Part shown: one piece after another, positions 35,401 to 41,400 of the stretch
Layout: every line of letters begins with the position of its first letter
Position numbering within the stretch: the stretch's first letter is position 1
NCBI RefSeq assembly: GCF_054482595.1
Contig: NZ_CM137008.1
Direction: 5' to 3' (one strand)
DNA: 64,000 nt
Program-made: the position numbers

Positions 35401-38400
35401 AGGTGAATGATATTTCCATACGCTGTTGGATATCCGTTGTTATACACCTCGTATAACTCAAGACCTGTTGCCCCCTGCGTATTGTCTGTCAGCGCGGTTA
35501 CCCGACCTTTTGAAGCCAGATTAACTGATGATACTGCTGTTCCACCTGACGGTAACGCCCCGATCTCTGATGCCGTTGGCTTATTTCTGGAGTTATAGTC
35601 CCTTCGCCAGCCAGGTGAATAATATGTTCCGTGATTAATATAGGTAAACTGGGCGTTAGTTGTTCCACCACCAGTGGAGGTGGTCGGTGTGGTAATGCGG
35701 ATCGTCATCGCTGACTTTATCCCCATTACTTCAATGACAGCTCCGGCGAGATGAATATTACCGCAGTCAGTATCAGTAATGATTTTATTATTGCCATAAG
35801 ACCAGGAACCCTTGCACATCCAGTATGGATGGTTAAATGCTCCCTGAGAATCCAGCCACTCGATAAACTGTGCAGTCGTCCAGTTTCCTGTTGTTGTGCT
35901 TACTGACCCACCGAAGGCACGGCAGGCACCAATATTTTTCGTAAAGGTATCTTTGCCAGGGATATCCGCACCGTTCTGATCTTTCTGCAGACGTTTCTCA
36001 GCATTGTCATTGGCTGCTTTTACTGCCTTTGGCGTTGCCGCCAGCGTTTCAGACGTGCTGTTGGTCGCGCTGCTTAACTGGATTATCCCTTTCTGTGCTG
36101 TCGTTGCATCCTGTGCGGTGTATTTCCCGTTAGCCAGGTCATACGCGGCCTTAACGGCTTTTGGCGTTGCCGCCTGTGACTCGGAAGTGCTGTTGGTCGC
36201 ACTGCTGAGCTGTACTATCCCCTTTTTCGTCGTGCTCGCATCCTCAAGCGCCACGGCGGATGCAATATCCTCTGCACGTTTTGCCGCTGTCTCAGCGCGC
36301 GTTGCTGCAGATTCCGCCGTACTTTTGCTCTGAGCTGCTGCCGTCGCACTACCAGCTGCCTCTGTCGCCTTCGTGGATGCCGTCGTGGCGCTACCCTTCG
36401 CTGCTGACGCCTGTCTGGTCGCCTCATCTTTTGAAGCAGACGCCGATGATGCCGATGACGCTGCCGAACTGGCTGACGATGCGGCAGCCGTTTTTGAGGA
36501 TTCTGCACGGGTTTCCGACGCTTTCGCGTTCGTTTCGGATGTCTTCGCTGCGGAAGCTGACCTCGCTGCTGCGCTGGCCTGTACAGCGGCTTCGCCAGCA
36601 TTCGTTGTGGCTGTTGAAGCAGACGATGCAGCACTTTCTGCCGACTTTCCGGCAGCGGTGGCACTGGCTGAGGCCTGCCCGGCACTTGTTGACGCGGCAC
36701 TGGCAGATGATGCAGCCGCTGTTTTTGAGCCTGCCGCAGCTGAGGCACTCTGTCCCGCTGCCGTTTCAGAAGACCTGGCGTTCGTCTCGGACGTCTTTGC
36801 CGCCTTCGCGGAATTTCCTGCCGCCGTTGCCGAGGAAGCGGCACTACTGGCGCTTGATGATGCGTTCGTTTCTGATGATTTCGCTGCCTCTTTTGAGGCC
36901 GCCGCATCCCGGGCTGAGGTGGCAGCTTCTGACGCCTTTGTGGTCGCGGCGGATGCAGAAGTGGCTGCAGATTTTTGTGACGCTGCCGCATTCGTTTCTG
37001 ACGTTTTCGCCGCACCGGCACTGGTAGCTGCCGCGCTTTTTGAGGACTCTGCAGCAGCAGCACTTTTCGATGCTTCACTGGCCTTTGTTGATGCCGTTCC
37101 TGCGCTGGAAGTCGCTGACTGAGCCGACGAAGCGGCCTGTCCGGCTGACGTGCTGGCTGCACGTGCTGAATCTGCAGCATCAGTCGCATGGGTTGCCGCC
37201 TCACGGGCAGATGTGCTGGCATCACTGGCTGACTTCTTCGCGGCTGCCGTGTTCTGTGCCACCACGGACGCGTTACGCGCCACCTCTTCCACCATCAGTT
37301 CAAAACGTCGCAATGCCTCCGGACGGGCATCATCCTCCGTCATCGCACCGAGAAAATCATTCAGCGTACCGGGTTGGGAATCTTCATACACGGTGATGGT
37401 CCCGGCATGTGACGGCGGGAATCCTTCCACCAACAGAATAACGCTGTACTGACCGTACTCAACGTCCATGCTGTAACGCCCGGCTTCATCCGGATTTTCT
37501 GAGGCCAGCGTGTTCACCACCACCGTGGTGCTGTTACGTTTTGCTTTCAGCTGGATTGTGCAGTTCTGAACCGGTTTTCCTGTGCCGTCTTTCAGTACAC
37601 CTGAAATCTTTACTGCCATATTCACCCCACAAAAAAGCCCGCCTGAACCGGCGGGCTGTCATAACACTGTGTTACCTGGCTAATCAGAATTTATAACCGA
37701 CACCCACGATGAAACCGTCAGTGCGCCAGTCGCCACTGCCGGAACCTTCATAAGCGACATCAATGGCCACCGATTCGGTCGGGTTAAACTGCACGCCAGC
37801 TCCCCACGCCAGAGACGTGTTGCTGTGGCGACCGTCATCACTTCCGGTCAGCACATCGTGCGTTTTCCCCTTGCTGTCGGTCACCTGCAGATAATCCCCG
37901 GAGAAGGTCGAAACACGGCTGTAAGCCACCCCCGCCATCGCATACGCGCTGAACCATTCATTCACGCGCACAGACGGCCCCGCCATCACGCTGAACCAGC
38001 GGTTACGCACGGAATCTTCATGCCAGCGGGTATCGCTGTAATGCGTTTTTTGTTCATCTTCTGCGTCGGCATAACTGAAAGACGTAATCAGCCCCAGCGT
38101 GTCCGTAAATTCATAACGGTATTTCACGTTAATCCCGTTCAGATTATCGCTGCCGGGTGCGTTCGTACGGGCATGAAGATACCCTGCGCTCAGTGTGGAC
38201 TGATGTTCAGACGCCCATGCAGGCGCACCGGATACGGCCAGACAGATGGCTGCGGAAAAAATGGCTGCACAAACTTTACGCATAATTACCTCTCGCTTTT
38301 CTGCAATAAAAAAGGCGCCATTTCTGGCGCCCGTATTGGGGTTATAAAAATTTCAACTGATACTGATACCGGATGCGGCTTTTTTCGTTACCGAGACCAT

Positions 38401-41400
38401 TAAATCACTGATCCATGTTCTGGGCTCTCCACTGCCGCTCGACTGAACTTCAAATGTTAATATTACATCTCCGTCCCCCACTGGCATATCAATGATATTG
38501 CTGTACACGACTGTTGTCCTTTTCGAACCACTAGTGGATTTGTCATAGATTACATTGCCATTTTTGCGCACAATTAATCTGCAGGTATCGTAGATATTAG
38601 CGCCATCATTTCTACTAAAATATGGTGGCGCACCGTACATGATTGGTTGAATTATAATCTGCCTGTCAAAGGCATGATCGTCCTTAATATGAACGGTAAG
38701 TGAACCCTGTGGGTATTCTCCGGGGTGCGGAAATCGATGCCCTGTCGTTTTTACAAAATCACCACGCACCTGGTTAGCATCAAGCATCCCCTTAATAGTA
38801 CAGCTCTCATTAATCGTGACGTTGTTGAGCGTCCCGGCGTTCGCATTCACACTGCCACTGATATCCGCATTTTTAGCAGTCAGCTTTCCGTCAGGTGTCA
38901 GGGAGAATGCCGGAGGATTGCCACCACTGGTAATCGTGGGAGCAATAAGGAACTTGATCAGCGCCTCATTAATAAACGTCTGTCCGCCCTGTGTGACCAG
39001 TGCAGGAGTGGTGTTACCATTCGCCGGGTTAATAAATGCCACCCGGTCTGCAGCCAGCAGCACCTGACTCTGCATGCCGTCGGGGGTGTTCTCAATACCG
39101 GCACCGATACCCGCAATATAAAGGCGTCCGTCCTGCATCTGCTGCAGCTTCACTGCCCACATGCTGTTCAGGTTATTATTTGTATCAACCTGAACCTTCT
39201 GTATCTGCTGGATCGCTGCACTCTGGTCTTCCAGTTTCTTATTGACGGTCTGTGTTATTTCATTGCTGACATCCGTTATGGACGTCCTGATTTCAGTCAG
39301 GTCAGGCGCAAGCTGACCGTTATCAATCTGCGTCCACAGCTCCTGAGCCAGATGGGTTTTCCCTATCTCTCCTTTGAAAAAATCCAGATAGCCGGACGCA
39401 TCATCACTCGGCTGACCAACAGCCTCCACAAATGCCGATTTGCCAACGGTGTTCACACTGCGGATATAAAAATAATAATCATGGCCCGGTTTGATATTGA
39501 TACTGGCAGCTATCCAGTACAGCGCCGTGCCAAGATAGCGGGCTGTGGTTTCAACCTGCCTGATATCCGCAATCCGCTTTTCCGAGAACCAGAATTCAAA
39601 CTGTACCGTCGGGTCATAAACGGCAAGATGCGGCGTGGCGGTTATCTGAAAATAGCCCGGCGTCAGCTCAATCCGCGACGGCGCTGCCGGTGCGGCAATC
39701 CGGAACGATACCGATGCCGGATCGCCCTGCTGCCCCCAGGCATTTGCCGCCCGGACTGTCAGCCTGTAATTTCCCAGCGCCAGTTGCCTGAAGCGGTATG
39801 TGGTTTCCGTCGTCCGGGCCGTGCTGACCAGCCGTTCACTGCCATCATCCGCAGCCACGGTCAGGCGAAGCAGGAAGTTCACGCCCTTCACCACCTTCGG
39901 CGTGTCCCAGCGCGCCAGCACCTGATATTCCCCGCTGTCTGCGGTGACTTCGGCGGTCAGGTGCTGCACCGCTGGCGGCGTGACACCATTCACCGTGCCG
40001 CTCTGGTCACCGTCAAAGTGCGCCCCGTTATCCACGATGGCCTCTTTTGCCGGTACATGCTGCACGGCGGTGATGGCATACGTGCCGTCGTCGTTCTCAC
40101 GGATACTCACACAGCGGAACAGGCGCTGGCGCAGCGTCGGCAGCTTCAGCCCCCACACGCTGTACTCGGCAACGCCGTCAGGAACCCGGCTCACTTTCAC
40201 CTTCACGCCGTCGGTGACGGACTGGACCTCCACGCTGACCGGATTCCCCTGTCCGTCAACCAGGCTTATCAGCGTGGTGCCGGAAGATGGCAGCGTGATT
40301 TCACGGTCGAGCGTCAGTGTCCGGGTCTGGCTGTTCACCGCCAGCACACGCCCGCCGATGCTGATCCCCGCATAGTCATCATCGCAGATTTCAATGACAT
40401 CGCCCGGTACATGGCGAAGCCCTTCTGCGCCCACGCTGAAATCCACGGTCTGCGTTTCCAGCAGCTCCGTTTTAATCAGCCACAGCCCGGCTCGGTGTGC
40501 CTGCCCCCGGCTGGTACAGCCAAAGGCGTCCATCTTCGTGACATTACGACCGTAACGGAGAATGGCCTGCGTATCTTCAACAAGCTCTGTCGCCGTCTCC
40601 CAGCCGTTATTCGGGTCAATCCAGTTCACCTCAACGGCATTATGGCGGTCCTTCAGGGCGCTGAAGCTGTAGCGGAACGGCGCGCCATCATCCGGCATCA
40701 CCACATTACTGCGGTTATAGGTCCACACCTTATCCGACGGTCGGTCCTGCACGAACGTCAGCGTCTGCCCGTTCCATACCGGCATACAGCGCATCGCCGA
40801 GCAGAAATCACTGAGAACATCCCACGCCTTACGCTGTGTGGTCAGGTAGGCATTACAGGTGATGCGCGGCTCCGTGCCACCAAAGCCATCCGGCACCGAC
40901 TGGTCGCAATTCTGGCCGATGACATACAGCGCCCATTTGTCCACATCCGCCGCACCGAGACGCTTCCCCATGCCGTAGCGCGGATGGGTCAGCATATCCC
41001 ACAGACACCAGGCCATGTTATTGCTGTATGCTGGCTTAAACGTTCCGTCCCAGATACCGCTGTATTGTCGCGTCTGCGGGTTATAGTTCGACGGCACCTG
41101 CAGAATGCGCCCGCGAAGATGATAATTACGACTCACCTGCTGGCTGCCGAACTGCTCCGAGTCCACCTGTACGCCAACCAGTGCCGTGTTCGGGTAGCAC
41201 TGTTTCACATCGATGATTTCGGTGTATGACGACCAGAGCGTTTTGTTCTGCAACTGGTCTGTGGTGCTGTCCGGTGTCATCCTGCGCATCCGGATATTGA
41301 ACGGGCGCGGCGGCAGGTTATCCACCACTACCGATGCCAGATACTGCGAGGTGGTTTTGCCCTTAATGGTGATGTCTTTTTCCGTCACCCAGCCACCGTT

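Follow-up and report, generated by a model that had tools for sequence, protein, structure and literature searches.

Does a lambda-like prophage whose tail-tip protein J departs from that of phage lambda at its C-terminus enter cells through a receptor other than LamB? The question is raised by a 64,000-nt stretch of an Escherichia coli chromosome (NCBI RefSeq assembly GCF_054482595.1, contig NZ_CM137008.1), hereafter the window, which contains a lambda-like prophage adjoining torT. Its gene J (tip attachment/central tail fibre protein) is an intact open reading frame (ORF) of 3477 nt and 1158 aa on the minus strand (38353..41829). J's receptor-binding domain (RBD) decides which cells are entered by a lambda-like phage or by an engineered lambda delivery particle. 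An earlier note on this DNA, made from the sequence alone, had proposed that the end of J diverges from lambda and that the phage probably uses a different receptor. Our overall explanation, to which we assign a probability of about 0.75, is that J is a mosaic protein carrying a rare RBD cassette with replaced distal loops, that this cassette would dock on a porin and that its receptor is probably not LamB.

Window J is a member of the lambda gpJ tip attachment/central tail fibre family. All six Pfam domains of J (FNIII-A_GpJ, Phage-tail_3, Ig_J, Ig_J_second, Phage_Tail_Tip and Ig_GpJ_C) scored above their curated cut-offs. The N-terminal hub and FNIII-A region matched PF13550 Phage-tail_3 (E = 2.4e-42) and PF24801 FNIII-A_GpJ (E = 1.8e-41). 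The pair of immunoglobulin (Ig)/fibronectin type III (FNIII) domains and then the tail-tip fibre domain matched PF24421, PF24489 and PF09327 (E = 9.3e-42, 9.7e-40 and 1.4e-30). PF12421 Ig_GpJ_C was found at residues 1038-1158 (E = 5.7e-31; 107.8 bits for a cut-off of 26.2). The 21 N-terminal residues are identical to the start of lambda J, and the exact 1158-aa protein is already recorded at NCBI as "host specificity protein J". The protein is indeed 26 aa longer than lambda J (1132 aa), as had been noted before: this difference is the sum of a 28-aa insertion in the shaft (residues 837-864) and a net loss of two residues over four indels in the loops of the RBD.

In lambda J, the two FNIII domains are followed by an alpha-helical shaft (residues 809-861), a beta-sheet prism and an Ig-like RBD whose distal loops L1-L4 are inserted into LamB (PMC11101478). 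Window J and lambda J are 82% identical overall (BLASTP), and this identity is very uneven along the protein. Residues 1-805 (39415..41829; all segments and loops of J lie on the minus strand) form a lambda-like hub and two FNIII/Ig domains that are 97.5% identical to lambda in amino acids and 94.8% in nucleotides, and 76% identical to J of the Stx2a-converting phage WGPS6. Residues 806-930 (39040..39414), which comprise the helical shaft and the upper beta-prism, are of the WGPS6 type: they are 99.2% (amino acids) and 98.1% (nucleotides) identical to WGPS6 and 45% identical to lambda in amino acids, and nucleotide identity to WGPS6 J is 100% over residues 821-920 in 20-codon windows. The 28-aa insertion relative to lambda (39238..39321) lies in this segment. 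WGPS6 and the Stx1a phage Stx1_131719 have it too, and lambda, phage mEp460 and Salmonella phage SPF_0923 show a gap in its place. We place it in the shaft because its position falls within the alpha-helical shaft of lambda (PMC11101478). An AlphaFold2 (AF2) monomer model of residues 790-1000 contains a helix over residues ~812-890, with a confidence (predicted local distance difference test, pLDDT) of 42 that is too low to rely on.

The 30 residues that follow (931-960; 38950..39039) constitute a short beta-prism segment unlike all reference J proteins, with 57-60% amino acid identity to lambda, WGPS6, mEp460 and SPF_0923. Next comes a conserved beta-prism island (residues 961-1000; 38830..38949), which is 95% identical to lambda in amino acids and 90% in nucleotides and is kept in all the J proteins that we aligned. 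Finally, the receptor-binding cassette occupies residues 1001-1158 (38356..38829), as supported by Ig_GpJ_C and by AF2 and Foldseek. It opens with a neck similar to that of mEp460 and WGPS6 (residues 1001-1030; 87% amino acid identity to mEp460 and 53% to lambda), and its Ig-like RBD (residues 1031-1158) shares 43% of its residues with lambda, 46% with the A8 type and 47-48% with the WGPS6/mEp460 type. These segment identities indicate that gene J is a recombinant of at least four sources and that its C-terminus departs from lambda J by far more than chance or the usual drift among alleles would produce.

This mosaic structure modifies the picture from which the question arose. Approximately 840 residues had been described as lambda-like; high identity does extend over the first 805, but divergence starts at residue ~806 (nucleotide 39414), at the very peptide that the earlier note had quoted. 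The divergent part therefore spans ~353 residues rather than ~310, and the start that had been proposed for it (39300, residue 844) lies ~38 residues inside it. It is also not uniform, and the lambda-like island at residues 961-1000 had been overlooked. The claim that the C-terminus lies outside the normal variation of lambda is sound, with 43% identity over residues 1031-1158 against 97.5% over residues 1-805.

The RBD could be modelled with good confidence (AF2, residues 985-1158, pLDDT 81.3). The top Foldseek matches of this model were the PDB entries 9wcb, 9wca, 8xck and 8xcj (E = 9e-17 to 5e-15; template modelling (TM) scores of 0.67-0.75). The best of them was 9wcb, the gpJ of A8 with OmpC (E = 8.9e-17; TM 0.73); lambda J with LamB (8xcj) gave a TM score of 0.75, and the closed states of A8 (9wca) and lambda (8xck) were matched as well. 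A sequence search of the PDB with window J ranked the structures in the same way, with 9wca ("A8 gpJ 713", E = 1.8e-99) followed by lambda J (8xcj/8iyk). The window RBD is nevertheless an allele of neither type. Relative to lambda, it carries loop indels of -4, +2, +3 and -3 residues in addition to its low identity. Relative to A8, identity amounts to 46% for the last 128 aa and to 52% for a structural alignment of 174 residues that includes the conserved neck.

The variable stretches of the RBD correspond to four inter-strand loops in the AF2 model. L1 (residues 1032-1041; 38707..38736) is four residues shorter than in lambda and aligns with the hot spot at lambda residue 1012. L2 (residues 1068-1081; 38587..38628) is two residues longer and aligns with the indel hot spot at lambda 1048-1049. 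L3 (residues ~1098-1104, STSGSKR; 38518..38538) is three residues longer and aligns with the hot spot at lambda 1077-1078, and L4 (residues 1132-1138, GSGEPRT; 38416..38436) is three residues shorter and aligns with the hot spot at lambda residue 1107. These hot spots were defined on 1207 natural J homologues, in which deletions at 1012 and 1107 accompany insertions at 1048 and 1077 (Maddamsetti et al. 2018, PMC6646904). In comparisons with the RBDs of lambda and of the A8 and WGPS6 types, identity is 51-54% in the framework of the window RBD and 25-29% in L1-L4, and 13-15 out of 16-18 gap columns fall in the four loops. The upper-loop motifs of the lambda and A8 RBDs are kept (DDxxFDRQ, NG and DMPxGxG); in the AF2 model, DMPVGDG and a second conserved motif of 11 residues sit in loops other than L1-L4. 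Because the differences are concentrated in L1-L4, the loops with which lambda enters LamB and which are known host-range hot spots (PMC11101478; PMC6646904), the LamB interface of lambda is not conserved in window J.

How common is such a cassette? Megablast matches in phage records were confined to the first 552 nt of the region, with identities of 87% or less, and the last ~400 nt had no match. The best tblastn match in the phage collection was 51.7% identical over 165 aa, conserved neck included, and 46.6% over the last 128 aa, with no closer relative. In a set of 5.8 billion proteins, the nearest sequence outside its own cluster was 58% identical. Of 5426 complete E. coli genomes, 22 contain the cassette itself (97-100% nucleotide identity), and the same C-terminal sequence occurs in five prophage contigs of IMG/VR (97-100% nucleotide identity). 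About 15 of the 22 genomes originate from poultry (chicken, turkey and duck); this sampling is not independent, because nine of the genomes belong to a single Korean chicken study. In the same genome set, the lambda-type RBD (query L001:4518-4904) was detected in 98 genomes, always with at least 99% identity to lambda, and the three matches listed are the laboratory strains K-12, B and C43(DE3). The A8 (OmpC) type was detected in 1805 genomes. A non-lambda C-terminus is therefore the rule in E. coli prophages, and the attention that it had first received was overstated; it is the RBD type of the window that is rare. It also appears that the textbook LamB-binding RBD is nearly absent from natural prophages in these 5426 genomes. 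RBD types formed four groups when clustered at 60%, with approximate cluster counts since some database fragments came from a gapped aligned file; the named pairwise values agree with the segment identities. Peptide strings of the window RBD had no match in the searchable literature, in which the allele is not discussed, and a search of the mEp460 receptor data and of the PV340xxx phage set returned neither a sequence nor a receptor assignment for it.

The genomes that carry the cassette suggest how it has moved. Among carriers, RBDs that are 98.4-100% identical in nucleotides are joined to N-terminal parts of J that differ by 3-6%. Residues 931-960 exist in two unrelated versions: the carriers 64EVA, Santai and 181.1 present the version of the window, and SLK172, CH4797 and Z1323CEC0013 present the common version with the same RBD. 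The recombinant breakpoints among carriers lie in the conserved island at residues 961-1000, which is thus likely to be the recombination joint for RBD exchange. The fusion point engineered by Brodel et al. (lambda residue 964, corresponding to residue ~992 of window J) falls in the same island (PMC11338833). The side tail fibre genes (stf) of the carriers have different lengths (1314, 2919, 3036, 3354 and 3357 nt) and their prophages occupy different chromosomal sites. Conversely, the J backbone of the window, clustered at 90%, is also found with an A8-like RBD (1160 aa). A further RBD type on this backbone (1162 aa, containing AVGKAFPHDPRESEFKPWPSG; P0109, P0111, P0115 and P0116) was observed in Escherichia fergusonii and Salmonella enterica serovar Rissen, and is 44-45% identical to the window RBD.

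A near-identical copy of the phage region is present in the conjugative plasmid pSM107_MCR (NZ_CP130669.1, 51833-84533). This plasmid is a 111-kb pilV-shufflon plasmid in which the lambda-like prophage adjoins a site-specific integrase. The plasmid-borne prophage has a full head and tail module, and its identity to the window across I-J-lom-stf-tfa is 99.0%. The host strain carries the RBD on its chromosome as well.

What might the cassette bind? It keeps the Ig-like beta-sandwich and the upper loops, and L1-L4 have all been swapped for loops of different sequences and lengths. By analogy with the gpJ of lambda and A8, the J trimer would dock its three RBDs on a trimeric outer-membrane porin, with L1-L4 entering the barrel mouths, and the spreading of the RBDs would pass up the prism and the shaft and thereby cause the tail tip to open. 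The two complexes solved for this RBD fold (8xcj and 9wcb) are both three-fold docks on trimeric porins; given this homology, a trimeric porin contacted through L1-L4 is the most likely receptor. Since L1-L4 differ completely, the binding surface differs from the surface that lambda presents to LamB, which makes another porin, or one particular porin allele, the probable receptor. Whatever the receptor may be, we consider it fairly probable that it is not LamB. Our leading guess, and the likeliest single candidate, is OmpC, since the non-lambda RBDs of the family that have been characterised (A8, 1A2, 434 and phi330) are all OmpC users (PMC11338833, PMC12502783). More tentatively, and on balance doubtfully, the rare cassette might recognise an outer-membrane protein or porin allele outside those used by the lambda-like J proteins characterised to date, such as OmpF, PhoE, NmpC, OmpN or an OmpC variant of avian E. 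coli.

Several points weigh against our explanation as a whole. We only infer the identity of the receptor. The RBDs of 434 and phi330, which are 35-40% identical, both use OmpC (PMC12502783), and J of phi21 switches from LamB to OmpC through one substitution (PMC11336670); these two cases make sequence distance a poor predictor of the receptor in either direction. Thus, the earlier suggestion of a different receptor stands insofar as the LamB interface of lambda is not conserved, but divergence does not by itself predict which receptor is used. The allele might also have been characterised already, as the OmpC-binding variant 1A2 of Eligo. Finally, the AF2 model gives weak structural support to the longer helical shaft.

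The cases of 434, phi330 and phi21 leave some room for an RBD that still uses LamB through different loop contacts, either by convergence or by retained specificity. Its fold is the one that the lambda RBD has when bound to LamB (TM 0.75), divergent RBDs can share a receptor (PMC12502783), and unrelated GpJ tips in Drexlerviridae target LamB as well (bioRxiv 10.64898/2026.04.02.716166). However, none of the four loops that lambda places in LamB keeps its length or sequence here (25% identity), the critical lambda positions 1012 and 1107 fall in deletions, and the non-lambda RBDs of this family characterised so far have all turned out to use OmpC (PMC11338833, PMC12502783). We consider continued use of LamB rather unlikely, although it is the alternative that survives best.

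Recognition of a non-porin receptor such as FhuA, BtuB, TolC, NupG or a surface glycan is considerably less likely still. J-like tips of other siphoviruses do use such receptors, but the two solved complexes of this fold are both porin docks, and siphoviruses that target FhuA, BtuB, LptD or YncD carry a separate receptor-binding protein gene downstream of J. FhuA-dependent lambdoid phages usually carry cor. In the window, J is followed only by a terminator-like hairpin with a T-run (38313..38332, minus strand) and by lom, and no cor-like gene was noticed between J and lom. A terminator is annotated at the same position between J and lom in phage mEp460.

Gene J also appears to be functionally maintained. 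It is full length in six of the seven copies examined, namely the window and five carriers, and one copy is frameshifted. Within residues 1-805, the carriers show approximately 5-9 synonymous codon differences for each non-synonymous one. The RBD presents only five variable codons among six carriers and three of these changes are synonymous; the sole amino acid polymorphisms are R1073K in L2 and E1135D/Q, with three alleles, in L4. The location of both in predicted receptor-contact loops hints at selection where the receptor is bound, with numbers too small for a test. Defective prophages are common in E. coli, and J, K and I are all frameshifted in the carrier Z1323CEC0013, but a C-terminus that merely decays in a cryptic prophage, without current function, is hardly credible when the window and five other carriers have an uninterrupted ORF of 1158 aa, six Pfam domains score above cut-off, the RBD is modelled confidently, synonymous differences far exceed non-synonymous ones, the tail gene order is fully lambda-like and the region has a copy in a plasmid. 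The best-supported reading of these sequences is that J is functional and that its RBD belongs to a rare allele class of its own within the known Ig_GpJ_C family.

The surroundings of J are those of a lambda-like tail module. Homologues of I, K, L, M and H lie upstream of J, and the order L-K-I-J-lom-stf-tfa is complete in the window and identical in the RefSeq annotation of near-identical prophages. Based on ORFs and Pfam matches, lom (37684-38283) lies downstream of J, stf (34590-37625, minus strand) encodes a protein of 1011 aa, and tfa (34006-34590) lies downstream of stf. The stf product includes an Ala/Ser/Thr-rich low-complexity stretch of roughly 330 residues and His-rich GAHTH repeats near its C-terminus. 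Three hypothetical ORFs are found on the plus strand between torT and tfa (30227-33877), at 30227-30829, 31173-32210 and 32618-33877, the last with ~30% GC content versus ~55% in the phage region. None of the three had a Pfam match or a credible PADLOC match, and a 419-aa ORF among these genes matched phrog_19262 (unknown function) from end to end. They are phage cargo, given that the same three genes come after tfa in the plasmid-borne copy. We also considered an antisense ORF of 834 aa within J (38725-41229, plus strand); nothing indicates that this frame is a gene, and the composition and codon usage of J most likely account for it.

These results leave the current understanding of J function unchanged. 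They show natural cassette exchange finely: a conserved joint of 40 residues, one cassette on several backbones, and polymorphisms restricted to two receptor loops. If the receptor did differ from both LamB and OmpC, the cassette would widen the toolkit for targeted DNA delivery (PMC11338833) and provide a data point for genome-based receptor prediction. A new natural specificity, if it exists, could be transferred to lambda particles by way of the conserved joint.

The closest named systems place window J within a family of related tips. It shares with lambda gpJ (P03749; PDB 8IYK, 8XCK, and 8XCJ with LamB) the gene position K-I-J-lom-stf-tfa, the order of domains and the Ig-like fold of the RBD. 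It differs from it by a shaft that is 28 aa longer, by residues 806-960 that are 45-57% identical, and by an RBD core of 43% identity with indels in all four receptor loops. The A8 gpJ chimera and the natural A8-type RBD (PDB 9WCA, and 9WCB with OmpC of EDL933) are the best PDB match by both sequence and fold, with an L1 of equal length and a common neck and upper loops, but L2-L4 are unlike in length and sequence. An RBD identical to that of A8 occurs in Salmonella phage SPF_0923 and in Stx1_131719. J of WGPS6 (AP012539, BAT32664) is 99% identical to window J over residues 806-930, long shaft included, but only 76% over the 805 N-terminal residues, and the WGPS6/mEp460-type RBD has longer L1 and L2 loops and a core that is 47-48% identical. 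Finally, the natural "specificity region" lineages of J described by Maddamsetti et al. (2018, PMC6646904) were defined statistically, without receptor assignment, from variation concentrated in lambda residues 960-1132, and window J shows their exact pattern of correlated indels. The C-terminus of window J is thus a new, uncharacterised allele of a well-documented, hypervariable and recombining module rather than a new mechanism.

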